A stretch of DNA of 62,639 nt from Bacteroidales bacterium (lineage in GTDB: Bacteria; Bacteroidota; Bacteroidia; Bacteroidales; UBA7960). The stretch is from positions 1 to 62,639 of the forward strand of contig DATIKK010000008.1 of assembly GCA_035477635.1 (NCBI GenBank), written 5' to 3'. Positions within the stretch are counted from its first letter, which is position 1. Every line of letters starts with the position of its first letter. This document shows positions 7,712 to 23,285 of this stretch, in pieces. A program made the translations under genes and the position numbers. The notes below the pieces were generated by a model. That model was not told where the DNA came from, did no database searches, and worked only from the letters and a program-made list of their open reading frames with translations.

Positions 7712-9567
7712 GAGCCTTGTTGTTTCTTAAGTTTTTGATAGGTTTCGATGATTGAGTTCAGCATCTTTTCGGTATTGCTGGCGCCCTCACCCAAGAGGAA
7801 GGCTATGTTTTGAACCATTTTCAGGTTCTCGTCAATAACTTCTGTTACCCGATTTATAACCTCTTCTTTGCGTACTTCGGCAATGTGCATATCGCGAAAA
7901 ACACCACCGACTATTTTATTGCTTTTTAAAGAATATATGCTTACATTAAGCAGGTTTTCACCATGGTTAACATCCTTTCCGATTACATTCTCATCTTGTT
8001 CAAGTACATAGGCAAACAGGTTATAAATATTATGGGGGAGAAGCGATTTTAAATCAGCTCCGACCATGCCAGGAATTACCTCGTTGATTACGGCAGCATC
8101 TTCACCCAGAATTTTTACGAAACTCTGATTCGACTCAATAATTTGTAATTTCTCGTTCACAATAACGGCTGCAGATGGTAGGTTTTGAAACAGGGCCGAA
8201 ATGGTTTGGACCTCTTGTTTTATCTTCTGGTTTTCAGCCTTCAGGCCTTTTTCAACATCATTCTGGGTATCGGTCAGCTTTTTCAGTTTATCATTATTGC
8301 TTTTTAGTACCCTTATGTACTCACTTTTGCTCCTAATGGAATAATTGAGGCACATTTCGGGTTTGCTAAGCCCCTGGCTGATTGAAATGGCAAAATCGCG
8401 GCAACTCCGGTATCCGCAAGCGCTGCACGATGGTCTCTTTTCCAGGTCTTTTCCGAGGCTTTTCATTATTTCCTCTATTCGATCATTGCCCGGTACCGGA
8501 AGTCTCTGATCGTCTTTAACAAAGGTTCGCGATAGGTCGAGTGCAGAATAGTTTCTCATTTCCTGTTCCCATCTTGGCCTGTCAAAATCTTTCAGGCGCT
8601 TATTGGCATAAGCAACCACCATCGACCTTCGAAGAAATTTGTTTGATGACACTGTTGTTCCGGGTCCCATCAGGCAGCCCTGATCGTAGAAAAGGCTGAA
8701 ATGCTTTTTCATGGAATCTGATTCGGCTGAGAACTCTTCAACTGCGTGAATCATATTCTCCTTACCACTTGCCGATACCACCGAGCCGTAAAGCAAATCA
8801 GTACTGACTCCCGATGCATATGTGAATCCGTTTGGCAATGGGTACAGAGACCCCAGATAGCCTATGGGTGGATCAAAATCAGAAAACTCGACCATACCTT
8901 CCTTTATGTTAAATCTTTCGAACAACTGGCGAAGTTCCCTGAAAGTGAGTACTGCATCAATTCGTCCATCATCCTCAAAAAGATGTGCATCATATTTGGC
9001 CGACAGGCAGGGGCCAAAGCAAACAATTTTCACATCCATCCCGTATGTTTTTCGAACCACCTTTGCAGTGGCAGTCATGGGAGTTACAATGGGGGCAAGG
9101 TTTTCGGTAAGTTCAGGATGAAATTTTTCTACAAAAGAAACCAGACTCGGACAATTAGCCGTCAGATAATACTTCCCTTTGAAGTTTTCCAACAACGTTT
9201 TGTATTTTTCGGCTACCAGATCAACTCCAAACGAAATTTCGACAACATAATCGAACCCAAGGGTTCGGATCATCTCAACAAATTTCCTGTAGTCGAGTAT
9301 ATCCGGAAATTCGCCGCTTATGGTTGGATCAACAATAGCTGCAACCTTTTGCTCCGAAGCCAGCAATTCGACCGCCCTGTCGAGGTCGCTACAATGCGAA
9401 ACCGCATTCGACCCGCACACCGAAAGGCAACTGCCACATCCTATACACCTGTCGTGGTTTACCACAGGCTTTCCGTCGTCGCGCGATGAAATGGCTTTTA
9501 CCGGGCAAATCCGCACGCAGGCATATGATTTATTGCAGGCATTCAGATCAATGTTAATTATTTGCAT
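7708..9567 (-). CDS. Sensory-type [FeFe]-hydrogenase-like protein (HydS/HfsB-like): ferredoxin + H-domain + extra 4Fe-4S motif + PAS
   Basis: There are two N-terminal 4Fe-4S motifs (CNKSYACVRICP, CIGCGSCLSVC). The H-domain carries variant motifs TANCP, GPCLSAKYD and QGCLMGPG. A CSACGYRSC-x16-C motif and a C-terminal PAS-like domain follow. The protein is clearly paralogous to the 14502..16550 product, with shared blocks SFVEK(F/H)HP, LDL(S/T)RTF and DDQR. Confidence 0.85.
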   Translation of the reverse strand: MQIINIDLNACNKSYACVRICPVKAISSRDDGKPVVNHDRCIGCGSCLSVCGSNAVSHCSDLDRAVELLASEQKVAAIVDPTISGEFPDILDYRKFVEMIRTLGFDYVVEISFGVDLVAEKYKTLLENFKGKYYLTANCPSLVSFVEKFHPELTENLAPIVTPMTATAKVVRKTYGMDVKIVCFGPCLSAKYDAHLFEDDGRIDAVLTFRELRQLFERFNIKEGMVEFSDFDPPIGYLGSLYPLPNGFTYASGVSTDLLYGSVVSASGKENMIHAVEEFSAESDSMKKHFSLFYDQGCLMGPGTTVSSNKFLRRSMVVAYANKRLKDFDRPRWEQEMRNYSALDLSRTFVKDDQRLPVPGNDRIEEIMKSLGKDLEKRPSCSACGYRSCRDFAISISQGLSKPEMCLNYSIRSKSEYIRVLKSNNDKLKKLTDTQNDVEKGLKAENQKIKQEVQTISALFQNLPSAAVIVNEKLQIIESNQSFVKILGEDAAVINEVIPGMVGADLKSLLPHNIYNLFAYVLEQDENVIGKDVNHGENLLNVSIYSLKSNKIVGGVFRDMHIAEVRKEEVINRVTEVIDENLKMVQNIAFLLGEGASNTEKMLNSIIETYQKLKKQQGS

Positions 9568-9615
9568 GTCTTTTACTCTTAAAGGATTTTCGTAAAAGGT
9601 GAGCGGAGTTTCTTT

Positions 9616-9876
9616 CTATTTGTTTTCAAAAAACGCATCTAAAAACTCGATAACATTTGATTCGGTAACTTGACAAAAAAGGTTGTCATTAATTTTGAGT
9701 AAAGGCCCTTCCACACATTTTCCCAAACAATGCGACCCCTTAAAAATAACTCTGCGGGTCCGACCTGTTTCACGAAGGTAATCCATTATCGCTGGCAGGG
9801 TTTTCTTATTGCCACGTGAAAAACAACTGCTACCCATGCATATTGTAATTTCGAGAACAGGCTCTTCCATTCGCAT
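9616..9876 (-). CDS. Thioredoxin-like [2Fe-2S] ferredoxin (NuoE C-terminal-domain type, HfsA-like position)
   Basis: The 86 aa protein has a C-x4-C-x31-C-x3-C pattern (CMGSSC ... CLGKC). It is the first gene of the minus-strand operon ending in the PP2C phosphatase. Confidence 0.7.
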   Translation of the reverse strand: MRMEEPVLEITICMGSSCFSRGNKKTLPAIMDYLRETGRTRRVIFKGSHCLGKCVEGPLLKINDNLFCQVTESNVIEFLDAFFENK

Positions 9877-10134
9877 AACATTAGATTACAGGGCCTTAAT
9901 GCATTTGAACACCAGAAATTATTTGCCAACCGCAAAGGAAAACCGCAATTTTTCAATCGGACTGGATTTCACCCGGCCTGGTATCAAATCAGGTATTTTT
10001 TTAACACTTCCAAATTTAATAAACCTTTTCAAATTACCTGGTTAATTAAATAACAACCAGCATGTATTCATTTATTGAGTAGCATGGCATCTGCTCCCTA
10101 ACGGTTTGTCCTAATCTGATTTATTGATTGTTGC

Positions 10135-10159
10135 ATGTGAAAACCTGTTGTTTTAACAT
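10135..10159. promoter_or_regulatory. 25-bp imperfect palindrome ATGTGAAAAC-N5-GTTTTAACAT in the divergent hydrogenase control region
   Basis: Nine of 10 arm positions are complementary. It lies 87-111 nt upstream of hydC and about 260 nt upstream of the divergent ferredoxin gene. Confidence 0.35.
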
Positions 10160-10224
10160 AAATAGATAGGTAAATTAAAAATTTATGATCAAAAAGAATG
10201 ATTTTTGTCTTAACTTTATTAATA

Positions 10225-10242
10225 TTGTGAAAAAAATTACAA
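10225..10242 (+). promoter_or_regulatory. Candidate Rex operator TTGTGAA-AAAA-ATTACAA, 3 nt upstream of the hydC start
   Basis: It matches the published Rex box architecture TTGTGAA-N4-TTCACAA at 12 of 14 half-site positions. A rex gene lies in the same gene string. Confidence 0.4.
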
Positions 10243-10245
10243 CTC

Positions 10246-10728
10246 GTGCCAACACAATCTTATGAGGAAATTCTTCAAAAATTTCCCAACAGGCAACCTG
10301 AGGACCTCATACAGCTTTTGCATGAAATACAGGATGAACATGGCTACCTATCGGCCGAAGCAATTGGTGTTGTTAGCCGGTTTTTAGACATTTCGGTCAA
10401 TAAAATTTATGGAGTTGCTACTTTTTACGACAATTTTCGTTTCGCTCCAGTTGGCAAATATCATATCAGGATATGCAACGGGACCGCTTGTAAAGTATCG
10501 GGTTCTACTATGCTTATCAGGGAATTGGAAAAGCAACTTGGAATTTCTTCAGAACAACCCGAAGATTCTTCATTGTTTACTTTAGAAATAGTTTCTTGTC
10601 TCGGGGCATGCGGATTGGCTCCAATAATTGAAGTGAACGGCGAATTTTATACAGAAATGACAATTCAGAAACTTCAATTACTTCTGCACCACCTTCAAAC
10701 AAAAGACCAGGCCTTATATGAAACCTGA
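10246..10728 (+). CDS. hydC: NuoE-like [2Fe-2S] subunit of trimeric [FeFe] hydrogenase (HydC)
   Basis: The 160 aa protein has the NuoE pattern CNGTAC ... CLGAC. The start is GTG and there is no upstream in-frame ATG. Its stop overlaps the hydB start by 11 nt. Confidence 0.85.
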   Translation: MPTQSYEEILQKFPNRQPEDLIQLLHEIQDEHGYLSAEAIGVVSRFLDISVNKIYGVATFYDNFRFAPVGKYHIRICNGTACKVSGSTMLIRELEKQLGISSEQPEDSSLFTLEIVSCLGACGLAPIIEVNGEFYTEMTIQKLQLLLHHLQTKDQALYET

Positions 10729-12670
10729 AGATACTGATAACATCAAACGTTTCCTGATATCGGAGGTACTCTTCTCGCCCGAGGCACAGGCCGATCCTTC
10801 GGTAGCCAGGGAACTGTCGTATATCTGCCGGGAAAGGGTTTTCAAACCTATGGTTTATGTAGGGATGGGCTCTTGTGGGGTCATTGCAGGCGCTGGAAAA
10901 GTATTTGAGACCATCCGTCAATATATCGACGACCAGGCATTAAATGTTGACCTGATTGCAGGAGGTTGCCTGGGATTTTGCAGCGCAGAACCGATAGTTG
11001 ATGTTCAGTTGCCAGGCAAGGCAAGGATTTCGTTTGGCAATGTAACTGTTGATAAGGTTTCGCACATACTCGATGAAGTTTTGAACCATTGCATGCCACA
11101 AAATGTTAATGTTTTAGGGCAATATGCCAGCGAAATCTTCCAAAACTGGGAGGGAATCCCTAACCTGTTTTCGCACTCTTTTTTTTCGTCACAAAACCGC
11201 ATTCTTATGGATAACTGCGGTTTAATTGACCCGGTTTCGATCCATGAATACATTGCAAGGGGTGGATACAAGGCCTTCGCAAAATCTATTTCTTTCCATA
11301 CTCCGGCTGCTGTTTGCCAAGAAGTTGAAGATAGCCTGCTGGCAGGTCGTGGAGGTGGAGCCTTTCCAGTTGGAAAAAAATGGAGACTTGTTCTTAATGC
11401 CGTTTCTGGTCAAAAATACTTCATTTGCAATGCAGTAGAAAGTGACCCGGGAAGTTATATGAACAGGGCCATCATCGAAAGCAACCCTCACCGCCTTATT
11501 GAGGCCATTCTTATTGGAGCCTATGCAATAGGTGCCACCAAAGCATTTGTCTTCATCCGTAAGGAGTTTAAATTGGCAACAGAACGGTTTGAAAAGGCAC
11601 TAAACAACGCCCGTGAATTTGGCCTGATAGGCCACCATATCCTGGAATCGGGAGTAAACATTGAAATAACGTTAATAAAAGGTGCAAGGGCATTTGTTTG
11701 CGGCGAAGAAACCGCCCTTATCAACTCTGTGGAAGGAAAAAGGGCCATGCCAGACTCCAAACCCCCATTCCCTTCTGAAAGAGGCCTTTGGAATAAACCT
11801 ACCATTGTAAACAATGTTGAAACCCTTTTTAATGTCCCTCTTATCCTTCAGAACGGAGCTGATTGGTACAAAGCCATTGGAACCGAAAAAAGCAAGGGAA
11901 CAAAACTCTTTACCCTTTCGGGAAAGGTTCAACGGTCTGGCATAATTGAAGTGCCAATGGGTATTTCATTCAGGGAGATTGTGAATAAAATTTCAGGCGG
12001 TACTCTGAATGGAAAAAGGTTTAAGGCCATATTCCTTGGAATAAACTCCGGAAACTTCATCACCGAAAATACCATTGATGTGCGGGTTGATTTCGACGAA
12101 ATGATGAATATTGGAGCAGCCTTGGGCAGTGGAGGATTTGTGGTGGTTGACGAAACGGCCTGTATGGTAGATATGGCAAAATATTTTACCGGATTTTTTC
12201 AAAGGGAAAGTTGTGGTAAATGCATTCCGTGCAGGGAAGGAACAGCCAGAATGCTTGAAATAATGCAGCTTACAACTAAAAGACCAGGTAAAAGAAACAA
12301 ATTGCATACACTTGAACGTTTCAAAGGGGTGATGCAATTGCGCACCATGGCTTCTGTCATTAAGGAAACTTCGCTATGCGCCCTTGGCAGATCGGCTCCA
12401 AATGCAATCATTAATACCCTGCAAAGTTTTAAATCCGAATTTGAAAGTCATCTTTACGACAGAAAATGCCCGGCTGGAGTTTGCAGCGACTTGCGGGTTT
12501 TTTCAATTGATGTTGAGAAATGCACCGGGTGCACAGCATGCTATAAAAAATGCCCTGTTGAAGCTATTATAGGGTCGCCAAGAGTACCTCATTTTGTTGT
12601 TGAAGACCGCTGCACAGGCTGCGGCTTTTGTTACGACGCCTGTAAGTTCAACGCTGTTATGATATATTAA
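10718..12670 (+). CDS. hydB: NuoF-like flavoprotein subunit of trimeric [FeFe] hydrogenase (HydB)
   Basis: The 650 aa protein has an N-terminal thioredoxin-like domain and the FMN/NADH site GRGGGAFPVGKKW. It has the N3-type cluster motif ESCGKCIPCREG and C-terminal ferredoxin motifs CTGCTACYKKCP and CTGCGFCYDAC. Confidence 0.9.
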   Translation: MKPEDTDNIKRFLISEVLFSPEAQADPSVARELSYICRERVFKPMVYVGMGSCGVIAGAGKVFETIRQYIDDQALNVDLIAGGCLGFCSAEPIVDVQLPGKARISFGNVTVDKVSHILDEVLNHCMPQNVNVLGQYASEIFQNWEGIPNLFSHSFFSSQNRILMDNCGLIDPVSIHEYIARGGYKAFAKSISFHTPAAVCQEVEDSLLAGRGGGAFPVGKKWRLVLNAVSGQKYFICNAVESDPGSYMNRAIIESNPHRLIEAILIGAYAIGATKAFVFIRKEFKLATERFEKALNNAREFGLIGHHILESGVNIEITLIKGARAFVCGEETALINSVEGKRAMPDSKPPFPSERGLWNKPTIVNNVETLFNVPLILQNGADWYKAIGTEKSKGTKLFTLSGKVQRSGIIEVPMGISFREIVNKISGGTLNGKRFKAIFLGINSGNFITENTIDVRVDFDEMMNIGAALGSGGFVVVDETACMVDMAKYFTGFFQRESCGKCIPCREGTARMLEIMQLTTKRPGKRNKLHTLERFKGVMQLRTMASVIKETSLCALGRSAPNAIINTLQSFKSEFESHLYDRKCPAGVCSDLRVFSIDVEKCTGCTACYKKCPVEAIIGSPRVPHFVVEDRCTGCGFCYDACKFNAVMIY

Positions 12671-12685
12671 ACCCTGACAGAAGTT

Positions 12686-14392
12686 ATGAAATTTTTTATA
12701 AACGTCGATAATAGTCAGGTCGAAGTACAGGAGGGGGAAACCTTGCTCAATGTGCTCAAACGTCAGGGCATCAGGGTGCCAACCCTTTGTCATATGGAAA
12801 AGTTTTCACCCACCGGAGCGTGCAGGCTTTGCGTAGTCGAAGTGGAGGGAAAAAGGGATTTGATTACATCATGCAGTTACCCGGTTGAAAGAAACATGAA
12901 GGTTTTTACCAATACCCAAAGGGTTGTCAGGGCAAGAAAAATAATTGTTGAAATGCTACTGTCGGCGCATCCTGACGATTGCCTTTATTGCGAACGTAAT
13001 GGTAATTGTGAGCTACAAGTGTTATCTGAACAAATGAATGTAAAGGAGCGCAGGTTTTTTTCAAAGAAAAAGCCTTTGTACCCCGACTATTCAAGTCCAA
13101 GTGTGTTGCGCGACCCTTCTAAATGTGTTTTATGCGGCCGATGTGTGCGGATATGTGATGAAACTCAAATGGTTTCGGCTATTGATTTTATTGCAAGAGG
13201 CACCAAAACGCATGTGAACAGCGCTTATAAAAAGGGACTCAATGTAGAAAGCTGCATTCATTGTGGTCAATGCATTATGGTTTGTCCTACCAGCGCACTT
13301 TCCGACCATCCACACCTTGAAAAGGTGCAGGCCGCCCTTGGTGATCCCAAAAAGCAGGTAATTTTTTTGGTTTCGCCTGCCGTTACCGCTTCTTTAGACG
13401 ACATTTTTGGAATGAAACCCGAAAAAGATGCAGGCAACTATGCATGCGCATGTCTTAAAAAAATTGGAGCTCAAAAAGTTTTCGATTTAGGCATTGCATC
13501 CGATATTAATGTAAGTATGGACGCGCAACTTTTGGCAAGAAACATTGAACAGGGGGTAACCGGACCACTTATCAATTCCTGCTGTCCCGGATTTGTTAAA
13601 TTTGCTGAAGAATTCAGGCCGGATGTCTTATCGAGGCTGGCTCCATACAGGTCGCCACAGCAAATTTTCGGCAGGTTGCTGAAAACACTTTATACAAAGC
13701 AGAATAATATACATCCTGATAACCTGTACACCGTAGCCATAATGCCCTGCGTTGGCAGCAAATTTGAGGCTTCCCGTCAGGAAATGACCCAAAAGGGAAT
13801 ATCTGAGATAGATGCAATACTTACCACACGGGAGTTTTTGCGCTTGATAAGGACATTCGGGCTGGATTATAAATATGTTGAACCAGCCCCCTTTGATGAA
13901 CCCTTTCGTAAGGCATCCTCGTTTTCATTTAAAATGAGCTATTCTGGCGGAAAAGCTGAGGCTGTTGCTGCTGAACTTTACGAAAGATTGGGAAAATCCG
14001 GGCAAGAAACTTTTAAATTTCAATCTGTAAAAAAAGTTGGAGGAATAAGGGAAGCCAAAATGGTTGCTGGAGATAGAACCTTTGGTTTTGCCTGGGTCAG
14101 TGGAATTGCCAATGCATGCGCCTACCTTGACCAACTTTTTGAAGAGAAGCGGATGGATGTTCATTATGTTGAAGTAATGGCTTGCCAAAATGGCTGTCTG
14201 GGCGGCGGTGGACAACCAATATTCTTTGGCAATGATAAATTTCAGAACCGTAAAAAAACTTGCCAGGAATTAGAAAAATTTTCCCACTGTGTTCTGCCAA
14301 GCCATAATCAACAATTATGGCAGGTCTTGAAGGAAATGATGAAGGAGGCCGGAACAGAAGATTTACATGGTTATTTTCATCTTTTAAAATGA
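12686..14392 (+). CDS. hydA: [FeFe] hydrogenase catalytic subunit HydA with canonical H-cluster motifs
   Basis: The 568 aa protein has an N-terminal 2Fe-2S motif (C-x10-C-x2-C) and a His-ligated cluster motif HPDDCLYCERNGNC. It has two CxxCxxCxxxCP motifs. The H-cluster motifs are NSCCPGF (L1), MPCVGSKFE (L2) and EVMACQNGCLGGGGQP (L3). Confidence 0.93.
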   Translation: MKFFINVDNSQVEVQEGETLLNVLKRQGIRVPTLCHMEKFSPTGACRLCVVEVEGKRDLITSCSYPVERNMKVFTNTQRVVRARKIIVEMLLSAHPDDCLYCERNGNCELQVLSEQMNVKERRFFSKKKPLYPDYSSPSVLRDPSKCVLCGRCVRICDETQMVSAIDFIARGTKTHVNSAYKKGLNVESCIHCGQCIMVCPTSALSDHPHLEKVQAALGDPKKQVIFLVSPAVTASLDDIFGMKPEKDAGNYACACLKKIGAQKVFDLGIASDINVSMDAQLLARNIEQGVTGPLINSCCPGFVKFAEEFRPDVLSRLAPYRSPQQIFGRLLKTLYTKQNNIHPDNLYTVAIMPCVGSKFEASRQEMTQKGISEIDAILTTREFLRLIRTFGLDYKYVEPAPFDEPFRKASSFSFKMSYSGGKAEAVAAELYERLGKSGQETFKFQSVKKVGGIREAKMVAGDRTFGFAWVSGIANACAYLDQLFEEKRMDVHYVEVMACQNGCLGGGGQPIFFGNDKFQNRKKTCQELEKFSHCVLPSHNQQLWQVLKEMMKEAGTEDLHGYFHLLK

Positions 14393-14438
14393 CATTGAGT
14401 ATTGGGCATACAACTTGGGTCATTGAGCATGGGGCATA
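14393..14438 (+). repeat. Two 18-nt direct repeats (CATTGAGTATTGGGCATA / CATTGAGCATGGGGCATA) spaced 28 nt start-to-start
   Basis: Read directly from the sequence. Repeat 1 starts the base after the hydA stop codon. The two copies match at 16 of 18 positions. Confidence 0.8.
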
Positions 14439-14501
14439 GGGCGATATATTTGAGGTTCAATTCTCTAAAAGTTTTAAAAGTTAAAGTATATCTTTAATCA
14501 G

Positions 14502-16550
14502 ATGGAGCAACCTGCACAAAATCAATTTATATTCACTGTCAAGGACAGATGCAGGGTGTGTTATGCCTGTATTCGGGAATGCCCTGCCAAGGCCATAAGG
14601 ATTGAAAATGGGCAGGCCGAAATCATCCAGTCAAGATGTATTGTATGTGGCAATTGTGTTAAAGTGTGCAGCAGGAGCGCCAAAATGTTCTCATTTTCGA
14701 TTGACAGGGTAAAGAAATTGTTGCGTGAGCAGCCAAAAGTAGTTGCCATGGTAGCCCCAAGCATTGCAGCAGAATTTACCGATATTTCCGATTACAGGGC
14801 ATTTGTGGGGATGATAAAAGCCCTGGGTTTCAATTATGTAAATGAAGTAGCATTTGGGGCCGAACTGGTCGCCCACAAATACCAGGAACTGTTGAGCATG
14901 CATCCAGACCGGACTTATATTTCAACAAGTTGCCCGGCTATTGTAAGCTTTGTGGAAAAACATCACCCTCAGGTAATTGGTGCCCTCTCTCCAATTGTTT
15001 CGCCAATGATAGCCACTGCAAAAGTTCTGAAAAAGTTGCATGGCGACAACCTGCGGATTGTTTTCATTGGTCCTTGTATTGCCAAGAAAGGAGAAGCCGT
15101 ACGCAACCAGTATAGTGGTTTGATAGATGAGGTAATTTCTTTTATTGAGCTTCGGAGAATGTTCTTAGAAAAGGGATTAACCGAAAATAATGTAGAATCT
15201 TTTGAATTTGATCCTCCATTGGCTGGCAAAGGGGCAATTTTCCCAATTAGCGGAGGTATGCTTCAAACAGTTGACCTTGAAGAAGATTTCATTAAGGGTG
15301 AAATAGTTGTTGCTGAAGGTAAACAGGAAATCACCGGAGTACTTAAGGAGTTTGAAGAAGGTTATCTTGAGGCCAAACTGTTTGACCTTTTATGTTGCAA
15401 CGGGTGCATAAATGGCCCGGGAATGAGTCACAAACATCAGTTTTTCAATAAAAGAAAAAGCATTTCCAATTTCACAAAGCGTAAATTCGACATGTTAGAA
15501 TTGGAGGAGTGGAAAAGGAACCTGACAACTTACCTGGAACTTGACCTTACAAGAACTTTTCTCCCTGATGACCAGCGACCTCATAATGTTGTAGGAGTGG
15601 ATGAGGTAAAAAAGGTAATGAAGGAACTTGGAAAGCAAATTCCGGAAGATGAACTCAATTGCGGCGCATGCGGATATGATACCTGTATGGACCATGCTAT
15701 TGCAATAGTCAACGGGAATGCCGAAATCGAAATGTGCCTTCCAAATACCATAGAAAAACTGCATGAATACATAAAGGAACTTGACATATCTAACAAAAAA
15801 CTCGAATCGACCAGGGCGGCACTAAAACAAAGCGAAAAACTTGCCTCAATGGGACAGCTTGCTGCAGGGATTGCACACGAAGTAAATAACCCCTTAGGTG
15901 TGGTCATAATGTATAGCCATATACTTCTTGATGAAATTGACCCGGGGTCCCCGCTGTTTCGCGACTTGCAGCTAATCGTTGAACAGGCCGACCGTTGCAA
16001 AAAAATTATAGGCGGGCTGCTGAATTTTGCGCGCAAAAGCAAGGTTTATTTTACAAAAACCAATGTTAACCAACTGATTAAAGACGGATTACGCACACTT
16101 GTTCTCCCCGACAATATTAAATTGATGATTAATGTTCGTACAAAAGACCCTGTGTTGGAATGCGACCACGATCAAATGGTGCAGGCTTTTGGAAATCTAT
16201 TTAAAAATGCCGTTGATGCAATGCCACAAGGAGGTGTACTCAAAATAAAAGTTAGTGATGATATAGAAACTGATGAGGTTTTGTTTGAGATTTCTGACAA
16301 CGGTACTGGCATTTCGCCCGAAAACATGGAAAGAGTCTTTGAACCATTTTTTACAACCAAAGAAAGCGGACAAGGTACAGGACTTGGTTTACCAATAATT
16401 TATGGAATTGTAAAAATGCACCGCGGAAATATTAAGGTCGAAAGCAATAATGACCCTTCGAAAGAAGAGACGGGAACTACTTTTCTGGTATGGATTCCAA
16501 GACACAAGGTTGATGTTGGTGAAACAAAAGAGCAACAGGCGTCAAATTAA
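14502..16550 (+). CDS. Sensory-type [FeFe]-hydrogenase H-domain fused to a histidine kinase
   Basis: The 682 aa protein has ferredoxin motifs CRVCYACIRECP and CIVCGNCVKVC. The H-domain has motifs STSCP, GPCIAKKGE and LLCCNGCINGPG, followed by the extra motif CGACGYDTC-x16-C and a coiled-coil linker. The kinase part has the H-box AGIAHEVNNPL and ATPase boxes LFKNAVDAM, DNGTGI and GTGLGLPI. Confidence 0.88.
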   Translation: MEQPAQNQFIFTVKDRCRVCYACIRECPAKAIRIENGQAEIIQSRCIVCGNCVKVCSRSAKMFSFSIDRVKKLLREQPKVVAMVAPSIAAEFTDISDYRAFVGMIKALGFNYVNEVAFGAELVAHKYQELLSMHPDRTYISTSCPAIVSFVEKHHPQVIGALSPIVSPMIATAKVLKKLHGDNLRIVFIGPCIAKKGEAVRNQYSGLIDEVISFIELRRMFLEKGLTENNVESFEFDPPLAGKGAIFPISGGMLQTVDLEEDFIKGEIVVAEGKQEITGVLKEFEEGYLEAKLFDLLCCNGCINGPGMSHKHQFFNKRKSISNFTKRKFDMLELEEWKRNLTTYLELDLTRTFLPDDQRPHNVVGVDEVKKVMKELGKQIPEDELNCGACGYDTCMDHAIAIVNGNAEIEMCLPNTIEKLHEYIKELDISNKKLESTRAALKQSEKLASMGQLAAGIAHEVNNPLGVVIMYSHILLDEIDPGSPLFRDLQLIVEQADRCKKIIGGLLNFARKSKVYFTKTNVNQLIKDGLRTLVLPDNIKLMINVRTKDPVLECDHDQMVQAFGNLFKNAVDAMPQGGVLKIKVSDDIETDEVLFEISDNGTGISPENMERVFEPFFTTKESGQGTGLGLPIIYGIVKMHRGNIKVESNNDPSKEETGTTFLVWIPRHKVDVGETKEQQASN

Positions 16551-16561
16551 TAAATTGGAAG

Positions 16562-16960
16562 ATGCAACAAAGTAAAAAAATTACAATTCTGATCGTAGAT
16601 GACGATTTCGACTACCTTTTCCAGTTAAAAGCCGGTTTACTGGAAATGGGGTTTGAAGTTATTACAGCCGAAGGGCAAAAGGAAGCAGAGAAAATTCTTG
16701 AACGGCTTAAACCCGATATGGCAATCTTAGACCTTATGATGGAAAGCCATGATTCAGGATTTATTTTAAGCCATAGAATCAAAGACCTTTATCCCGATGT
16801 GCCCATTATTATAGTATCGGCAGTAACGGCCGAAACCGGTTTCGATTTTGATGTAACAAGTCTTGAAGAACAAAGCTGGATAAAAGCCGATTTGTTCCTC
16901 GATAAGGGTATCAGGAAGGATCAATTACAGCGAGAAATTTTTAAACTACTAAAACTTTAG
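16562..16960 (+). CDS. Single-domain response regulator (receiver only)
   Basis: The 132 aa protein has the receiver signature LIVDDD, phospho-acceptor context AILDLMM, and a conserved Lys in LDKG. It has no output domain. It lies 11 nt after the preceding kinase gene. Confidence 0.85.
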   Translation: MQQSKKITILIVDDDFDYLFQLKAGLLEMGFEVITAEGQKEAEKILERLKPDMAILDLMMESHDSGFILSHRIKDLYPDVPIIIVSAVTAETGFDFDVTSLEEQSWIKADLFLDKGIRKDQLQREIFKLLKL

Positions 16961-16962
16961 GC

Positions 16963-18087
16963 ATGGCAAAACTTGCCATAATGGTTGTTGATGATGAGCC
17001 CGGAATCAGAAGCGGGGTTACACGAATCCTCGAAAATTTCTCGGTTAGCTTTCCTTTTATGGATGAAGACTTCGATTTTGAAGTAACTGAGGTTTCGACT
17101 GGAGAGGAGGCCATCAACCAATTGTTGAACAGGCAATTCGATATTGTGCTGCTCGATAATAAACTACCCGGTATTCAAGGCGTTGACGTTTTAGATTTTA
17201 TCTCCAACAAGCAAATTGAAGTAATTGTGGTTATGATTACTTCATACGCTTCGCTTGATCTGGCAGTAAGAGCAACCCGGCAGGGCGCCTTTGATTTTGT
17301 TCCAAAGCCTTTTACCCCAAAGGAGCTTAGGGCCAACCTCGAAAATATTACAAAGCATCTCTTTTTGAAAAGAATGACCCAAAAAATGAACCTCGAAGGA
17401 AGGCATGCCAGATTCCAATTCCTTTCGGTATTGTCGCACGAACTCAAAGCTCCAATAAACGCAATTGAGGGTTATCTTAAAATGATGCAGGAAAAGAAAG
17501 CCGGAGAATACATTTCAGGTTATATGGAAATGATTGATCGCGCTTTAATGAGGTTGCAGAGTATGCGGAATCTCATTCTTGATATGCTGGACCTGACGCG
17601 GATCGAAAGTGGAAAAAAGAGCAGGTTTGTTGAACCAATTTTGCTTTGTGAAATTGCCCAACAGTGTATTGACACATTTCAGCCATTGAGCATCCAGAAG
17701 GGAATTGAAATTTATCTGAACTGTGTGCAGGAAATAATGGTTAACTCCGATAAAAAAGAAATGGAAATTGTTTTTAATAACCTAATCAGCAACGCAATAA
17801 AATACAATAAAGAAGGGGGAAGGGTAGATGTGAACCTGGGTGTTGAGCAAAATAATGCCGTAATTAAGGTAACCGATACAGGCATAGGCATGAAACCCGA
17901 TGACCTGGGTAAACTCTTCGAAGATTTTGTGAGGATAAAATCTGAAGAAACCAGGCATATAAGCGGAAGCGGGCTTGGCTTGTCAATTGTAAAAAAAATC
18001 CTCGATTTTTATGGAGCAATTATTCAAGTAGATAGCACTCCGGGCGAAGGCAGCAGCTTTGTAATTTATTTTCCAATGAAAAATTAA
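16963..18087 (+). CDS. Receiver-histidine kinase fusion (N-terminal REC, HisKA, HATPase)
   Basis: The 374 aa protein has a receiver domain (VVDDEP, VLLDNKLPG, VPKPF). It has the H-box LSHELKAPINAI and the boxes LISNAIKYN, DTGIGM and GSGLGLSI. It has no transmembrane or sensor domain. Confidence 0.88.
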   Translation: MAKLAIMVVDDEPGIRSGVTRILENFSVSFPFMDEDFDFEVTEVSTGEEAINQLLNRQFDIVLLDNKLPGIQGVDVLDFISNKQIEVIVVMITSYASLDLAVRATRQGAFDFVPKPFTPKELRANLENITKHLFLKRMTQKMNLEGRHARFQFLSVLSHELKAPINAIEGYLKMMQEKKAGEYISGYMEMIDRALMRLQSMRNLILDMLDLTRIESGKKSRFVEPILLCEIAQQCIDTFQPLSIQKGIEIYLNCVQEIMVNSDKKEMEIVFNNLISNAIKYNKEGGRVDVNLGVEQNNAVIKVTDTGIGMKPDDLGKLFEDFVRIKSEETRHISGSGLGLSIVKKILDFYGAIIQVDSTPGEGSSFVIYFPMKN

Positions 18088-18097
18088 TAACCGATTT

Positions 18098-18733
18098 ATG
18101 ATAAACAATAAATTAAAAGGCTTACCTGGTAGAACCGTTGAGAGGTTGAGTCAATACCGTCGGTTGCTTTACAACCTGGTCAACATAGATAAGGCTCATG
18201 TATTCTCCCATGAGTTGGCAACCATGATGAATCTTACTTCAGTGCAAGTGCGACGTGATCTTATGCTTATAGGTTATTCGGGGAGTCAAAGTAAAGGATA
18301 TCAGGTAAAAAGCCTTATTTCACTAATCAGCAATATAATTGACAGCGACCAAGGCCAACGTGTAGCAATTGCAGGAATGGGGAATCTTGGCAGGGCTATT
18401 TCGAGTTATTTTTCAGGCAAACGCGAAAAACTAATAATCGTGGCAGCTTTTGATAACGACCTTCAAAAGACCGATCGTATGATTGCCGGAATTCCTTGTT
18501 ATCATATTAATAAAATCAAAGAGGTGGTTAAGCTCGAAAACATAAATATTGCAATTCTCACCGTTGCCCCCGAGGCGGCCTACGATGTAGCAAAGATGTT
18601 TCTCGATGCTGGGGTAAAGGGACTTCTAAATTACACTTCTGTACCCCTTACTGTGCCTGAAGGCGTACACCTCGAAGAATACGATATTGTAACATCGCTC
18701 GAAAAACTCGCTTTCCTTGTGAAGCATCATTAG
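18098..18733 (+). CDS. rex: Redox-sensing transcriptional repressor Rex (NADH/NAD+ sensor)
   Basis: The 211 aa protein has an N-terminal winged-helix block ERLSQYRRLL...QVRRDL. It has the Rossmann motif AGMGNLGRA and the conserved blocks FDND and LLNYTSVPL. It lies 10 nt after the receiver-kinase gene. Confidence 0.88.
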   Translation: MINNKLKGLPGRTVERLSQYRRLLYNLVNIDKAHVFSHELATMMNLTSVQVRRDLMLIGYSGSQSKGYQVKSLISLISNIIDSDQGQRVAIAGMGNLGRAISSYFSGKREKLIIVAAFDNDLQKTDRMIAGIPCYHINKIKEVVKLENINIAILTVAPEAAYDVAKMFLDAGVKGLLNYTSVPLTVPEGVHLEEYDIVTSLEKLAFLVKHH

Positions 18734-18762
18734 ATTCTCCTGACCTTTTTTTTATAAAACCC

Positions 18763-19686
18763 ATGAACGTTTTTTACAGCATTGCCGCAACTGAAGGTAA
18801 AATACCTAATGCTGTTGTTACCACAGGGTCGTTTGATGGCGTACATGTTGGTCACAAAGCCATTATCAACCGGCTAAACTACCTGGCCGCACAATCTGGT
18901 GGACAATCGGTATTGATTACGTTCCATCCTCACCCCCGCAAAGTATTATATCCTGATCAGACCGACCTGAAACTTATTCATTCGCAGGAAGAAAAAATTC
19001 AACTCCTTGGCAAAACTGGCCTTCAGAACCTCATTATACTTCCGTTTTCCGCCGAATTTTCCAAAACATCCTCATACGATTTTGTCAGCAAAATATTAGT
19101 TGAAAAGCTTCAGGTCAAGGTAGTAGTTGTGGGCATGAACCACCACTTTGGGCACAACCGTCAGGGTGACTTTACATATTTATATAACCTCGGTTCAACA
19201 TTGGGTTTTAGGGTAGAGGAGATTTCGCTGCGCGATATCGAAAATGAAATTGTAAGCTCTACAAAGATTCGGAAAGCACTGGCTGAGGGAAACATACAAA
19301 GGGCAAATGCTTACCTGGATCATCAATATATCATTAGGGGCTACCTGCATCAAAATTTTAAACAAGAACTGCTCCCGCAAATCTCCTTCTTATCAATTGA
19401 AATTGAAGAGGAAGAAAAGTTAATTCCCCCGCCGGCCTTTTATGCAACGAGCTTGGTTTGCGAAAAAATGGTAAATAAATCAGTTACTCTGGTTGCTACT
19501 TCCGATGGGAAAGAAAAACCCGAGGTGTTGACTCATATAATTTCCGGCGAGCATAATTTGTTTAGTAATAAGGGAACCATTCTTTTTTACAAGAAATTGA
19601 TGGACTTGACCTGCCCATTAGACAGTGTTATTGACCTCCGGCAATTTGAACAGGCCAAAGAAATGGCAGAGGAGCTTCTGTATTAA
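18763..19686 (+). CDS. ribF: Bifunctional riboflavin kinase / FMN adenylyltransferase
   Basis: The 307 aa protein has the N-terminal nucleotidyltransferase motif GSFDGVHVGHK, the SSTKIR block and a C-terminal riboflavin kinase domain. Confidence 0.9.
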   Translation: MNVFYSIAATEGKIPNAVVTTGSFDGVHVGHKAIINRLNYLAAQSGGQSVLITFHPHPRKVLYPDQTDLKLIHSQEEKIQLLGKTGLQNLIILPFSAEFSKTSSYDFVSKILVEKLQVKVVVVGMNHHFGHNRQGDFTYLYNLGSTLGFRVEEISLRDIENEIVSSTKIRKALAEGNIQRANAYLDHQYIIRGYLHQNFKQELLPQISFLSIEIEEEEKLIPPPAFYATSLVCEKMVNKSVTLVATSDGKEKPEVLTHIISGEHNLFSNKGTILFYKKLMDLTCPLDSVIDLRQFEQAKEMAEELLY

Positions 19687-19697
19687 GCAATAAAAAA

Positions 19698-20477
19698 ATG
19701 TCAGGCTCTACACCTATGCGTATTACTTTTCTTGGTACAGGTACCTCAACGGGTGTGCCTGTTGTTGCCTGCAATTGCCCTGTTTGCCGGAGTGCCGATC
19801 AACGTGATAGCAGGTTGCGGACTTCGGTTCTGGTCGAAATAAACGGAAATAATTTTGTTATTGACTGTGGGCCTGACTTTCGCTACCAGATGATTCGCGA
19901 AAGAGTTGACGACATTGAAGCCATATTGTTCACACACGGTCATCGTGATCATATTGCCGGTATTGACGACATAAGAGGTTTTAATTATGTACTTAATAAA
20001 ACTATTAACCTTTACGCAAGTCAGGAGGTAATTAACGACATCAACAAGGAATTTCCATACATACTTAATGAAAAGAGGTTTTTTGGCGCTCCCCAGCTAA
20101 AGTTTCATGTAATTGAAAACAAGCCATTCAGTATTGGTTCCATCGATGTTTTACCCATTGAAGTGTTGCACTACAAGTTGCCGGTATTGGGTTTTCGCAT
20201 AGGTGGGTTCACCTACATTACCGATGCCAGTTTTATATCTGAAAACGAAATCCCTAAGGCTATTGGCTCTGATGTCCTTGTTATTAATGCATTGCGCAAA
20301 TCTAAGCATATTTCACACTTTTCGCTCGAAGAAGCTCTCGCTGTGATTAACCAGCTTAAGCCTGGCCGCGCCTATATTACCCATTTGAGCCACTTCATTG
20401 GTTTCCATCAAATTGTGCAGAAAGGATTGCCTGCCAATGTTTTTCTCGCCTACGATGGACTGAAAGTGGAAATTTGA
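19698..20477 (+). CDS. MBL-fold metallo-hydrolase (PhnP-like)
   Basis: The 259 aa protein has the metallo-beta-lactamase motif HGHRDH and an N-terminal Cys cluster CNCPVC, as in PhnP-type phosphodiesterases. Confidence 0.75.
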   Translation: MSGSTPMRITFLGTGTSTGVPVVACNCPVCRSADQRDSRLRTSVLVEINGNNFVIDCGPDFRYQMIRERVDDIEAILFTHGHRDHIAGIDDIRGFNYVLNKTINLYASQEVINDINKEFPYILNEKRFFGAPQLKFHVIENKPFSIGSIDVLPIEVLHYKLPVLGFRIGGFTYITDASFISENEIPKAIGSDVLVINALRKSKHISHFSLEEALAVINQLKPGRAYITHLSHFIGFHQIVQKGLPANVFLAYDGLKVEI

Positions 20478-20566
20478 TACCGCCAAATCTATTTAGGTAT
20501 TTCTGGTATTTAAACCTTTTTTTGCAGAAAATAATGTCAATCTGATTTTCGACCATTAGGTTTACC

Positions 20567-20574
20567 TACCTTTG
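20567..20574 (+). promoter_or_regulatory. Bacteroidota-type -7 promoter box TACCTTTG upstream of hydG
   Basis: It is an exact TAnnTTTG match, 25 nt upstream of the hydG ATG. I saw no clear -33 TTTG. Confidence 0.4.
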
Positions 20575-20598
20575 TAAGACAATTACATTAACCGAAAC

Positions 20599-22029
20599 AT
20601 GATTTACAACCCTGAAAAATACAGGCTTAAAGATGAACGGATGAAGCCCTTTATAGATCCGGAAGAACTATTGGGTTTTATCACAAATGTAAAAGCCGAA
20701 AAAACGCGGGTCAGGGAAGTAATTCAGGCATCACTTGACAAAAAACGCTTGTCGGTTGAAGAAACTGCAGTTCTTCTTAACACCGACGATCCTGATTTGA
20801 TAGAAGAAATCAAGGAAGGAGCCAGAAAGCTGAAAGAGAAGATATATGGCGAACGGATCGTGCTTTTTGCTCCCTTGTACGTGGGCGACCTTTGCACAAA
20901 TAATTGTCAGTATTGCGGCTTCAGGTCGGCAAATACAGGTATAAAACGGATAACACTTTCTAAGGATCAACTAATTGCCGAAACCCGCGCTCTTATTGAT
21001 CATGGTCATAAACGTTTAATCCTCGTTTATGGTGAACATCCAAAATATTCGGCCGATTTTATTGCCGAAACTGTTCGGATTGTTTACGGTGTAAGGCATG
21101 TCAACGGTGAAATCCGCCGTGTAAACATCAATGCAGCCCCTTTCGACATTCCTGGTTTTAGGGTGATAAAAGATGCCCGTATAGGTACGTATCAGATATT
21201 TCAGGAAACCTATCATCAGCCTACCTATGCCAAGGTTCATCTCGGAGGGATAAAGCAAAATTATGACTATAGGTTAACTGCCCTTGACCGTGCTCAAGAA
21301 GCCGGAATTGACGATGTCGGCATTGGGGCGCTTTTTGGCTTGTACGACTGGCGCTTTGAAGTATTGGGGCTGGTGCGCCATGTCAATCACCTGGAAGCGG
21401 TTTATAACGTCGGGCCGCATACTATTTCATTTCCAAGAATTCAAAATGCACTTTCGTTCGACATAGAAAAATGTAATCTGGTGAAGGATGATGAATTTGT
21501 AAGACTTGTTGCAATCCTTCGCCTTGCAGTACCCTATACTGGTATGATCCTCACCGCGAGGGAACCTTCGCACATCCGCGACCAGGTGCTGCGCTTTGGG
21601 GTATCACAAATTGATGGGGGAACAAATCTTGAATTGGGAGGTTACTCCAAAGCTAAGAAGCAAGGAGAACAGGATCTTACTATGGAACAATTTCAGATTA
21701 ACGACACCAGGTCGTTGAACGAAATTATGGACGAACTGATTAAAACCGGATATATACCCTCTTTTTGCACGGCATGTTATCGACTCGACCGAACAGGGGA
21801 ACATTTCATGGAATTTACCGTACCTGGTTTTATTAAACGTTTCTGTTCACCAAATGCCTTGCTTACGCTTGCTGAATACCTTGAAGATTATGCTCCGCCT
21901 CAAACTAAAGAAAGCGGGTACCGCCTTATTGACCAAAAGATTTCAGAACTTTCGGAAACACAACCAGTCGAAAGTCTAAAAGAGAAACTTAACCAGGTAA
22001 AACAAGGCAAAAGGGACTTATATTTTTAA
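20599..22029 (+). CDS. hydG: [FeFe] hydrogenase H-cluster radical SAM maturase HydG
   Basis: The 476 aa protein has the radical SAM motif CTNNCQYCGF. Its C-terminal C-x2-C-x22-C motif (CTACYRLDRTGEHFMEFTVPGFIKRFC) distinguishes HydG from ThiH. Confidence 0.9.
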   Translation: MIYNPEKYRLKDERMKPFIDPEELLGFITNVKAEKTRVREVIQASLDKKRLSVEETAVLLNTDDPDLIEEIKEGARKLKEKIYGERIVLFAPLYVGDLCTNNCQYCGFRSANTGIKRITLSKDQLIAETRALIDHGHKRLILVYGEHPKYSADFIAETVRIVYGVRHVNGEIRRVNINAAPFDIPGFRVIKDARIGTYQIFQETYHQPTYAKVHLGGIKQNYDYRLTALDRAQEAGIDDVGIGALFGLYDWRFEVLGLVRHVNHLEAVYNVGPHTISFPRIQNALSFDIEKCNLVKDDEFVRLVAILRLAVPYTGMILTAREPSHIRDQVLRFGVSQIDGGTNLELGGYSKAKKQGEQDLTMEQFQINDTRSLNEIMDELIKTGYIPSFCTACYRLDRTGEHFMEFTVPGFIKRFCSPNALLTLAEYLEDYAPPQTKESGYRLIDQKISELSETQPVESLKEKLNQVKQGKRDLYF

Positions 22030-22044
22030 ACCAGTATAAAATGC

Positions 22045-22082
22045 AACGAGCATGATTCGTTAAACACAAATACGGATGAAAA
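22045..22082 (+). repeat. Conserved leader motif copy 1 (AACGAGCATGATTCG-TT-AAACACA-AAT-ACGGATGAAAA), ending in the start codon of the first TM1266-like gene
   Basis: It is near-identical to 39304-39340. A 15-nt block, a 7-nt block and an 11-nt block are each identical. Confidence 0.75.
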
Positions 22083-22351
22083 ACAACCTCATACTTGGCA
22101 TACTTGTTTTTGACCGGATAAAAGAAGCCGGGCGCACCCAAAAGGTACTGTCCACGCATGCAGGTATTATAAAAACGCGCCTGGGCTTTCACGAACTTTC
22201 GGATTCTGTTTGTAGCAGAGTAGGCACAATTTTGCTTGTTCTCGAAGGTGACCAGGCTGGCTTGGAAGCTCTTACAGACGATTTGTCGAAAATCGGAGGA
22301 ATAGAAGTAAAAGAGTTTACCTTCGAATTTTATACTAAAAAATTTACCTGA
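22076..22351 (+). CDS. TM1266-like small putative iron-only hydrogenase system regulator (NikR C-terminal/ACT-like), paralogue a
   Basis: The 91 aa protein has the pattern LGILV-DR...IKTRLG-HEL...ILLVLEG. It lies immediately downstream of hydG. Family assignment is by size, sequence pattern and context. Confidence 0.6.
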   Translation: MKNNLILGILVFDRIKEAGRTQKVLSTHAGIIKTRLGFHELSDSVCSRVGTILLVLEGDQAGLEALTDDLSKIGGIEVKEFTFEFYTKKFT

Positions 22352-22352
22352 T

Positions 22353-22604
22353 ATGGCTGAATTAAGAATTCTTGGCATCTTAGTATCGCAACGAAGCAAG
22401 GCTGCAGTTTCGGTTCAGCAAATACTAACAAAGTACGGTGGTTGCATTAAAACCCGACTTGGCTTGCATGAGCTGGATAAGCCCGACTGCGAGGATTGCG
22501 GTCTGATTATTCTGGAACTGTCGTGTGATGAGGAGGAATGTAACAGACTCGAAAATGAATTGTTGGAAGTATCGGGAGTCAAATTGCAAAAAATGGTATT
22601 TTAG
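22353..22604 (+). CDS. TM1266-like small putative regulator, paralogue b (Cys-rich)
   Basis: The 83 aa protein is alignable to paralogue a (LGILVSQR...IKTRLGLHEL...IILEL). It has extra cysteines (GGC, CEDC, SCDEEEC). Its start is 1 nt after the stop of paralogue a. Confidence 0.6.
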   Translation: MAELRILGILVSQRSKAAVSVQQILTKYGGCIKTRLGLHELDKPDCEDCGLIILELSCDEEECNRLENELLEVSGVKLQKMVF

Positions 22605-22642
22605 CGATATTTTTGAAATTTTCTTTTGAACAGGCAGAACTT

Positions 22643-23059: not shown

Positions 23060-23221
23060 GGTTTTAACCTCACCGAAATTTCCTTGTTGACAGTTGTAAA
23101 TTTTTCTGCCTTCAATCACGTACATGGAGTGGTGATATATAATTGAGGTTAATGCTGATTTTTTCCATGAAAAGATTGTTTATTTACCGATTTTTTAGAA
23201 ACAAAGCTTAATTACCAATGT

Positions 23222-23250
23222 TTTGCATCGCTTAAACTTAATTATTTTTG
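23222..23250 (+). promoter_or_regulatory. Candidate Bacteroidota promoter upstream of dxs (-33 TTTG, -7 TATTTTTG)
   Basis: TTTG lies at 23222-23225 and TATTTTTG at 23243-23250, with 17-nt spacing. The box is 36 nt upstream of the dxs ATG. Confidence 0.45.
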
Positions 23251-23285
23251 TCCCGTTGTAGATATTATCGCTCAAGTTTCTGCTA

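Follow-up and report, generated by a model that had tools for sequence, protein, structure and literature searches.

Can the active site of a hydrogenase act as the input domain of a histidine kinase? The question is raised by one gene in a 62,639-nt stretch of DNA from a Bacteroidales bacterium (lineage UBA7960; assembly GCA_035477635.1, contig DATIKK010000008.1, positions 1 to 62,639), which was analysed over its whole length and is called the window hereafter. The gene is located next to a HydABC-type [FeFe]-hydrogenase and encodes a protein of 682 amino acids (aa), in which ferredoxin motifs and a hydrogenase H-domain are joined to a histidine kinase transmitter. Our preferred reading, to which we give a probability of about 0.6, is that the kinase is an H2-responsive (or H2-linked redox) sensor, which feeds a relay of receiver (REC) and REC-kinase proteins and, with Rex, tunes the adjacent bifurcating HydABC. 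The class of kinase-linked sensory [FeFe] hydrogenases is already known and has been on record in HydDB since 2016, as [FeFe] Group C1, 'histidine kinase-linked (putative)' (Sondergaard, Pedersen and Greening; PMC5037454). In the literature consulted, just two putative sensory [FeFe] hydrogenases are named as characterised: TmHydS, a PAS-type protein of Group C (M2f), and TamHydS, which belongs to Group D (M2e) (PMC8163306, PMC10407848, PMC13104023).

Domain architecture of the kinase

Pfam matches were found, from the N- to the C-terminus, for an F-domain with two ferredoxin-type [4Fe-4S] motifs, an H-domain, a C-terminal Fe-S motif, and a HisKA-HATPase_c transmitter (Table 1). The same architecture was common to 120 full-length homologues among the matches listed, which shared 53-87% identity with the protein and came mostly from metagenome-assembled genomes (MAGs) of Bacteroidales, and it therefore reflects more than chance. 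All eight ferredoxin cysteines (C17/20/23/27 and C46/49/52/56) were kept in every homologue that was ungapped in this region (117 out of the 120).

The boxes of the transmitter were intact, with H459 in the H-box, N565 in the N-box, D599xGxG in G1, F613 in the F-box, and G623xGxGL in G2. H459 was invariant in the 120 homologues and aligned with the H-box of ZraS (9jfj). Sequence searches of the PDB retrieved two different sets of proteins. With residues 439-667, the matches were cytoplasmic domains of histidine kinases, the best being ZraS 9jfj (phmmer E 3e-34), and the transmitter was also aligned to CckA and KinB structures; with residues ~11-279, they were the [FeFe] hydrogenases TmHydA, T. 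kivui HydA1, and CpI. Pfam matched no PAS domain in the protein, which has a coiled coil and HisKA-HATPase in that place. No membrane segment was detected in the 682 aa, the highest 19-residue Kyte-Doolittle mean (1.64) being located inside the H-domain core. To judge by its domains and boxes, the protein is a soluble and probably dimeric class-I (HisKA) histidine kinase. A first-pass annotation, made from the DNA letters, had described a 682-aa protein with ferredoxin motifs, an H-domain, a complete HisKA-HATPase transmitter, and no transmembrane segment; the open reading frame (ORF), the Pfam matches, the boxes, and the hydropathy scan all agree with this description.

An AlphaFold2 (AF2) model, built from a 36-sequence alignment, had a mean predicted local distance difference test (pLDDT) score of 72 and a predicted template modelling (pTM) score of 0.57. 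The H-domain core and the catalytic and ATP-binding (CA) domain were modelled with confidence, and the L3 loop and the dimerisation and histidine phosphotransfer (DHp) domain poorly. A Foldseek comparison with the PDB matched the cytoplasmic kinase domain of ZraS (E 2e-15) and, over ~430 columns, CbA5H, TmHydA, T. kivui HydA1, and CpI (E 1e-12 to 1e-14 for CbA5H, TmHydA, and CpI). It returned no solved structure that joins the hydrogenase and kinase halves.

These data bear on the idea that the protein is a catalytically relevant hydrogenase subunit, the kinase part of which is vestigial or serves for dimerisation only. Both characterised sensors do turn over H2 at a low rate (TmHydS and TamHydS; PMC8163306, PMC10407848). 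Nevertheless, the intact H, N, G1, F, and G2 boxes, the invariant H459, the missing Group A proton-relay cysteine, and the cognate-looking REC-histidine kinase that follows the gene in 67 of 69 related loci make this highly improbable.

Conservation of the H-cluster site

The H-domain was mapped to CpI in two ways: through the HydA encoded in the window, the alignment of which to CpI was unambiguous, and separately by aligning the family profile to CpI residues 189-513. Both alignments agreed on the residue mapping, with a one-residue deletion between the last two cysteines. Three loops were recognised, L1 ('STSCP', with C144), L2 ('GPCIAKKGE', with C192, K195, and E198), and L3 ('LLCCNGC', with C298, C299, and C302). 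The H-cluster ligands C300, C355, C499, and C503 of CpI corresponded to C144, C192, C299, and C302, respectively, and these four cysteines were present in every ungapped homologue among the 120. Among the pocket residues, CpI A230-P231-S232 corresponded to A85-P86-S87, P324 to P168, K358 to K195, E361 to E198, and F417 to F247. The first-pass annotation had stated that all four expected [4Fe-4S] cysteines and the Lys/Glu pair of L2 are retained and that the proton-relay cysteine is lacking, and the mapping agrees on each count, with S143 at the position of the relay residue CpI C299.

The same annotation had read the L3 ligands from the motif 'CCNGC'. The motif is present; the third ligand is probably the invariant C299, with CxxC spacing, and not C298. 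The L3 ligand pair is most likely C299-x2-C302 rather than C298-x3-C302, since C299 was invariant (120/120), C298 was replaced by Leu in 4 of the 120 homologues, and both alignments placed C299 opposite CpI C499. PAS-type paralogues carry a single cysteine in the same CxGC arrangement. The AF2 model was considered for choosing between C298 and C299, and was uninformative at an L3 pLDDT below 50; conservation and the alignments decided.

The positions that define Group A (CpI C299, M353, and M497) are occupied by S143, G190, and L297, the Gly as in TmHydS and the Leu as in TamHydS. The two positions diagnostic of Group D hold M253 and G190, which do not correspond to that group either. A polar residue at the CpI 299 position was rejected as a family signature, with D, T, S, A, and P all found in the wider family. 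The region of CpI E279/E282 was ambiguous, MAFFT giving Y127/L130 and the profile alignment K126/E129.

The residues of the 2Fe-subsite pocket, P86/S87, P168, K195, E198, and F247, were invariant in the family alignment. In a protein with Fe-S clusters only, their conservation would serve no purpose, which argues that the site binds a real H-cluster, beyond a cubane. Alternatively, the site could be degenerate and lack the 2Fe subsite in vivo, in which case the protein would be an Fe-S sensor of O2, NO, or iron/sulfur status, similar to NreB or FNR. Three observations lean this way: H-cluster motifs were reported to be hard to recognise in C1 sequences from Hydrogenedentota (PMC11406978), neither HydE nor HydF was seen in the window, and a PAS-type paralogue encoded in the same window has lost one H-cluster cysteine. 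We judge it very unlikely all the same, as the four H-cluster cysteines and the equivalents of CpI K358, E361, P231, S232, and F417 are conserved and hydG is located nearby in the window. Moreover, a related Planctomycetes contig carries, on one strand, rex-hydCBA-kinase-REC-REC-histidine kinase, directly followed by two radical-SAM genes (one HydG-like with BATS), a lyase gene, and hydF.

The C-terminal Fe-S motif and the coiled-coil linker

Downstream of the H-domain, the protein carries the motif C387-x2-C390-x4-C395-x16-C412. Its four cysteines were invariant (120/120) and the x16 spacing was found in all family members. A Cx2Cx4Cx16C motif has been described for TmHydS and TamHydS (PMC8163306), and by its sequence the motif corresponds to the accessory [4Fe-4S] site that characterises the sensory hydrogenases of Groups C and D.

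Directly after C412, a heptad pattern was observed, with L413, I417, L420, I424, L427, N431, L434, R438, and L441 at positions a and d. N431, which occupies an 'a' position, was invariant in the family alignment; an Asn at this position is usual in parallel dimeric coiled coils. In the AF2 model, helices 413-433, 437-478, and 484-511 make up the linker and the DHp domain. Both the extra CxxCxxxxC-x16-C motif and the coiled coil noted in the first-pass annotation were thus found, the former with a PF04060 match and the latter through its heptads and predicted helices.

In each of the 120 family members, C412 and the phospho-acceptor H459 were 47 residues apart. The same distance was found in 72 of the 77 ORFs from cross-phylum loci; the other five ORFs had distances of 40 (four ORFs) and 13 (one ORF). 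Among 31 distant representatives (50%-identity clusters) with a recognisable H-box, distances of 47, 40, 54, 33, 68, and 12 accounted for 27, and each of the last five values differs from 47 by a multiple of 7. Such conservation of register is seen in sensor kinases whose input domain drives the DHp domain through a continuous helix. Because the Cys-His distance is fixed and most of the exceptions differ by multiples of 7, the linker points to a rigid helical coupling between the sensor and the kinase, a suggestion drawn from sequence spacing that we regard as the main mechanistic hint of the analysis.

The fixed register is also in line with what is reported for TamHydS, the C-terminal cluster of which keeps its redox state under H2 (PMC13104023). 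The C-terminal Fe-S domain of the kinase may pass on a conformational change instead of an electron.

Gene neighbourhood in the window and in related loci

When one genome per species was scanned, at least 566 genomes contained a relative of the kinase, with the culturable Draconibacterium orientale among the hits. The neighbourhoods of the best 80 were compared by tblastn of the window proteins against these loci. In 52 of the 62 loci whose flanks were long enough, the hydCBA genes were located directly upstream of the kinase gene and in the same orientation. This agrees with the first-pass annotation, which had placed the kinase gene directly downstream of the enzyme that it presumably regulates; in the window this enzyme is of the HydABC type, and the gap is 109 nt. 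Downstream, a REC-HisKA-HATPase hybrid kinase was found in 67 of 69 loci and a lone REC protein in 58 of 69. This synteny spans Bacteroidota, Planctomycetota, Myxococcota, Hydrogenedentota, Verrucomicrobiota, and others.

The receiver candidates in the window begin 11 nt and ~410 nt 3' of the kinase gene. Two adjacent receiver proteins had been noted earlier and both are present, although they differ in kind, the first being a lone REC and the second itself a hybrid kinase; the pathway would therefore be multi-step. Next in the block is rex. Of 78 related loci, 45 contained this gene, which followed the kinase gene in 26 of them and preceded it in 19. Among the conserved neighbours examined, no response regulator with a DNA-binding domain was found, and Rex was the only neighbour with such a domain. 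The hydG gene is located 4 kb downstream of the kinase, and HydG was encoded near the cassette in many related loci.

Table 1. Positions of the kinase gene, its domains, and the surrounding features in the window
Feature	Position	Strand	Evidence or description	Gap to next gene
Hydrogenase-type sensor histidine kinase, whole gene	14502..16550	+	ATG start, 682 aa; Pfam architecture	11 nt, from kinase stop
F-domain, two ferredoxin-type [4Fe-4S] motifs	14538..14678	+	Fer4_10, Fer4_7, Fer4_9 matches, residues 13-59
H-domain, residues 79-306	14736..15419	+	PF02906 (Fe_hyd_lg_C), E 7e-48
C-terminal Cx2Cx4Cx16C motif	15660..15737	+	PF04060 'FeS', residues 385-414, E 1.4e-11
Coiled-coil signalling helix, L413 to just before H459	15738..15875	+	heptad a/d pattern; AF2 helices
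HisKA / DHp domain, residues 450-512, phospho-acceptor His459 (codon 15876-15878)	15849..16037	+	PF00512, E 2e-12
HATPase_c catalytic domain, residues 555-667	16164..16502	+	PF02518, E 6e-26
Candidate Rex operator TTGTGAAAAAAATTACAA	10225..10242	+	4 nt upstream of hydC start; 2 mismatches to consensus
hydC, NuoE-like [2Fe-2S] subunit	10246..10728	+	PF01257, E 4e-46; NuoE family match	overlap
hydB, NuoF-like flavin and Fe-S subunit	10718..12670	+	Complex1_51K, NADH_4Fe-4S, Fer4; nuoF_fam E 2e-132	15 nt
hydA, catalytic [FeFe]-hydrogenase subunit	12686..14392	+	Pfam; Group A L1-L3 motifs SCCP, MPC..K..E, VMACQNGC..GGGQP	109 nt
Lone REC protein, 132 aa	16562..16960	+	PF00072	2 nt
REC-HisKA-HATPase hybrid kinase, 374 aa	16963..18087	+	Pfam	10 nt
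Rex, redox-sensing (NADH/NAD+) transcriptional repressor	18098..18733	+	NCBIfam Rex models, E 6e-59, above cutoff	29 nt
ribF-like FAD synthetase gene, then metallo-beta-lactamase (MBL)-fold hydrolase gene	18763-20477	+	after rex	11 nt between the two; 121 nt from hydrolase to hydG
hydG, H-cluster radical-SAM maturase	20599..22029	+	TIGR03955, E 2e-150, above cutoff
Rrf2/IscR-family regulator	22613-23059	+	after hydG
Small thioredoxin-like [2Fe-2S] protein	9616-9876	-
619-aa Fer4 + H-domain + Cx2Cx4Cx16C protein with coiled coil and PAS-like tail	7708-9567	-
PP2C/SpoIIE phosphatase	6527-7711	-

The neighbourhood also bears on a different sensor function, in which the kinase responds to redox state or the electron pool and not to free H2: the clusters of the F-domain would exchange electrons with ferredoxin or with the Fe-S chain of a docked HydABC, and the H-cluster would be only an electron sink or vent. 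Consistent with this, the two N-terminal [4Fe-4S] clusters are strictly conserved, the kinase gene follows hydA almost invariably, and Rex, another redox sensor, belongs to the same block. In addition, a metabolic or subunit role has been raised for those Group C proteins whose genes accompany bifurcating hydrogenases (PMC8542988; 'BfuT', PMC11406978). A plain Fe-S redox sensor would, however, not need the residues of the 2Fe-subsite pocket, which are conserved across phyla, and both TmHydS and TamHydS react with H2 (PMC8163306). We regard this function as possible but unlikely.

Side observations were made on two other parts of the block. The window HydA keeps C299, C300, C355, C499, C503, M353, and M497 (CpI numbering) and has D, L, N, and A at the positions of CpI E279, E282, R286, and S319, and Met at that of F417; T. 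kivui HydA1, unlike the window HydA, keeps the canonical Group A proton-path residues. Against the NCBIfam model FeFe_hydrog_A6, the window HydA scored 542 bits, below the 765-bit cutoff. The ribF-like and MBL-fold hydrolase genes recur in that order in related loci (22 for ribF and 7 for the hydrolase), an association that may connect the supply of flavin cofactor with HydB, which depends on flavin.

Distribution of the kinase and its sensor module

The best 80 relatives were nearly all full-length. They were found in Bacteroidota, Planctomycetota, Myxococcota, Hydrogenedentota, Calditrichota, Verrucomicrobiota, and Spirochaetota, as well as in Thermoleophilia, Melainabacteria, Acidobacteriota, Fibrobacterota, Desulfobacterota-type MAGs, and Ca. 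Kuenenia. Overall, the kinase class spans a dozen or more phyla.

The N-terminal module (residues 1-440), used as a query with a threshold of E<=1e-30, matched 1013 clusters formed at 50% identity. Among 71 scanned representatives, the module was fused to HisKA/HATPase_c in 24-26, to the AAA+ domains of sigma-54 activators in 14, nine of which also carried HTH_8 (a Fis-type helix-turn-helix), and to PAS domains in ~12. Since it precedes kinase, sigma-54 activator, and PAS outputs alike, the Fer4 + H-domain + FeS module behaves as a portable input domain. As judged from their domains, the sigma-54 fusions would be one-component hydrogenase-like enhancer-binding proteins, and no description of such fusions was found in the literature searched.

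Candidate regulatory sites

No site in the window other than TTGTGAAAAAAATTACAA, upstream of hydC, came within 2 mismatches of the Rex consensus TTGTGAAnnnnTTCACAA. A Rex-like site (2 mismatches or fewer) was found upstream of hydC in just 4 of 52 related loci, and a Rex operator linking Rex to hydABC was therefore rejected, save as a weak lead, as poorly conserved. A sigma-54 promoter would be expected upstream of hydC if the output were an NtrC-type regulator; this candidate was also rejected, as no intergenic match was found there and the window-wide count equalled chance. Likewise, a scan of positions 9400-23400 for sigma-70 promoters and terminators gave counts no higher than those in shuffled sequences.

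No inverted repeat was found in the gap between hydA and the kinase gene, and no terminator-like site was found in this gap or within the kinase gene. About 50 nt upstream of the kinase ATG is a TAnnTTTG-like sequence, 'TATATTTG', a motif so short that it is expected by chance. Rfam detected no RNA family in the whole window.

Proposed mechanism and its evaluation

Under the preferred reading, that of an H2-responsive kinase, the input module would be a complete sensory-type [FeFe]-hydrogenase, in which the H-cluster site is combined with two accessory [4Fe-4S] clusters and with the C-terminal [4Fe-4S] domain. H2 would react at the H-cluster and shift the population of its redox and protonation states; as the Group A proton path is not conserved, turnover would be slow, so that H2 would change this population. 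The resulting change in the H-domain and the C-terminal Fe-S domain packed against it would travel through the rigid coiled coil, which begins at the last cluster ligand, C412, and keeps a fixed heptad register to His459. This would switch the kinase/phosphatase balance of the DHp-CA transmitter, and phosphoryl groups would pass to the co-encoded REC-HisKA-HATPase hybrid, to the lone REC, or to both. Beside Rex, which senses NADH/NAD+, the relay would set the expression or activity of HydABC to ambient H2.

Several points weigh against this scheme. None of the conserved neighbours was found to be a DNA-binding response regulator, the whole window yielded neither HydE nor HydF, and no biochemistry (H-cluster or autophosphorylation) of a kinase-fused member was found in the literature searched. 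This last result also agrees with the first-pass annotation, which had placed the protein in a catalogued, biochemically uncharacterised, kinase-linked sensory class, as does the class description in PMC5037454. Transcript evidence for the locus was sought and none was found, the sequence being present only in soil and sediment DNA metagenomes. The AF2 model is of moderate quality, poor at the L3 loop and the DHp domain, and does not confirm the geometry of the site. Moreover, the residue at the CpI C299 position varies widely among wider relatives (D, T, S, A, or P), and the site therefore does not handle protons in a uniform way. Finally, if the C-terminal cluster behaves as in TamHydS, any signal through the Fe-S domain would be structural, and not a redox change of its own.

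A more speculative version, which we think quite unlikely, retains an H2-driven phosphorelay and gives it a non-canonical output, either post-translational control of HydABC or modulation of Rex by the lone REC. It would make the Fe-S domain and the coiled coil a general cluster-to-helix transducer. If true, the sigma-54 activator and PAS fusions would represent reuse of this transducer module.

The analysis adds three new details, namely the linker with its fixed register, a conserved relay in which no DNA-binding output is obvious, and the fusions to sigma-54 activators. Hundreds of anaerobes from soils, sediments, and digesters carry the kinase cassette together with the bifurcating hydrogenase. 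The cassette is therefore likely a common way for fermenters to match H2 production to H2 partial pressure, an adjustment that underlies syntrophy. Neither TmHydS nor TamHydS has an enzymatic output suited to direct measurement, whereas a kinase-fused member offers a direct readout in its autophosphorylation and phosphotransfer under H2 compared with inert gas. Its value is thus that of a tractable model, with mechanistic hints on how [FeFe]-type H2 sensors pass on their signal, and not that of the discovery of a new kind of protein.

A second sensory-type hydrogenase cassette

Another sensory-type hydrogenase cassette was observed at 6527-9876 on the reverse strand, divergent from hydCBA. It comprises the thioredoxin-like protein, the PAS-type hydrogenase paralogue, and the phosphatase listed in Table 1, and fits HydDB Group C3, 'phosphatase-linked'. 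One hydrogenase is therefore flanked by putative H2 sensors of two types, a C1-type kinase and a C3-type cassette. The three genes of the cassette were found again in 17 related loci, mostly of Bacteroidota.

In the PAS-type paralogue, L3 reads 'FYDQGC' near residue 298, with Asp at the position of the ligand CpI C499. Approximately 11 of the 17 orthologues in related loci keep the cysteine ('FFC[HEN]GC') and ~5 have Asp or Asn, so the paralogue has either a degenerate site or an Asp-ligated cluster. Just downstream of the PP2C gene, at 3288-6254 on the reverse strand, is a gene for a 988-aa soluble hybrid kinase (several PAS, HisKA, HATPase, and REC domains), which is not conserved, with weak matches in just 2 related loci.

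Comparison with known systems

By the description of the class, from which the label is taken, the kinase fits HydDB Group C1: a sensory-type H-domain is linked to a histidine kinase and encoded next to a Group A3 bifurcating hydrogenase. Similar arrangements have been reported in Petrimonas mucosa, a Bacteroidales isolate with a Group C1 gene close to Hnd/HydABC genes (PMC7768429), and in Hydrogenedentota, in which 21 out of 53 C1 genes adjoin A3 genes and a HATPase domain is reported for C1 genes in this position (PMC11406978). In some C1 cases, such as Cloacimonadota, a gene of its own next to the C1 gene encodes the kinase (PMC8542988), whereas here it is fused in one polypeptide. The best-matching HydDB reference also differs from the fused kinase in having no HATPase domain (PMC11406978).

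Among the characterised proteins, TmHydS shares with the kinase an N-terminal 2x[4Fe-4S] domain, the absence of the C299 relay cysteine, a Gly in place of M353, and a C-terminal Cx2Cx4Cx16C cluster that precedes a signalling domain (PMC8163306, PMC13104023). It differs in its PAS output, in place of a coiled coil and HisKA-HATPase, in having Ala rather than Ser at position 299, and in the replacement of M497 by Ser rather than Leu. TamHydS shares the change of M497 to Leu and the Cx2Cx4Cx16C motif (PMC8163306, PMC10407848). Unlike the kinase, it has no fused output domain (PMC10407848), uses the Group D proton path through E252 at the CpI V423 position, where the kinase has M253 (PMC10407848), and carries Ser, a hydroxyl residue, in place of M353, compared with G190 here (PMC10407848, PMC8163306).

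Two further systems resemble the kinase in logic or in its transmitter. In the HoxBC/HoxJ/HoxA system of Cupriavidus necator ([NiFe], HydDB group 2b), a slow, sensor-grade hydrogenase likewise controls a kinase that regulates hydrogenase genes (PMC5037454 Table 1; PMC5665086). However, its metal site and fold are unrelated, its sensor and kinase are separate proteins rather than fused, and its output, HoxA, is a sigma-54 type DNA-binding regulator, of which none is encoded alongside the kinase here. For residues 439-667, kinases of the ZraS/AtoS/NtrB type gave the best match in both sequence and fold. They share an H-box of the 'AHExxNPL' type, but they are membrane-anchored, with periplasmic or PAS inputs, and have NtrC-type regulators as partners.

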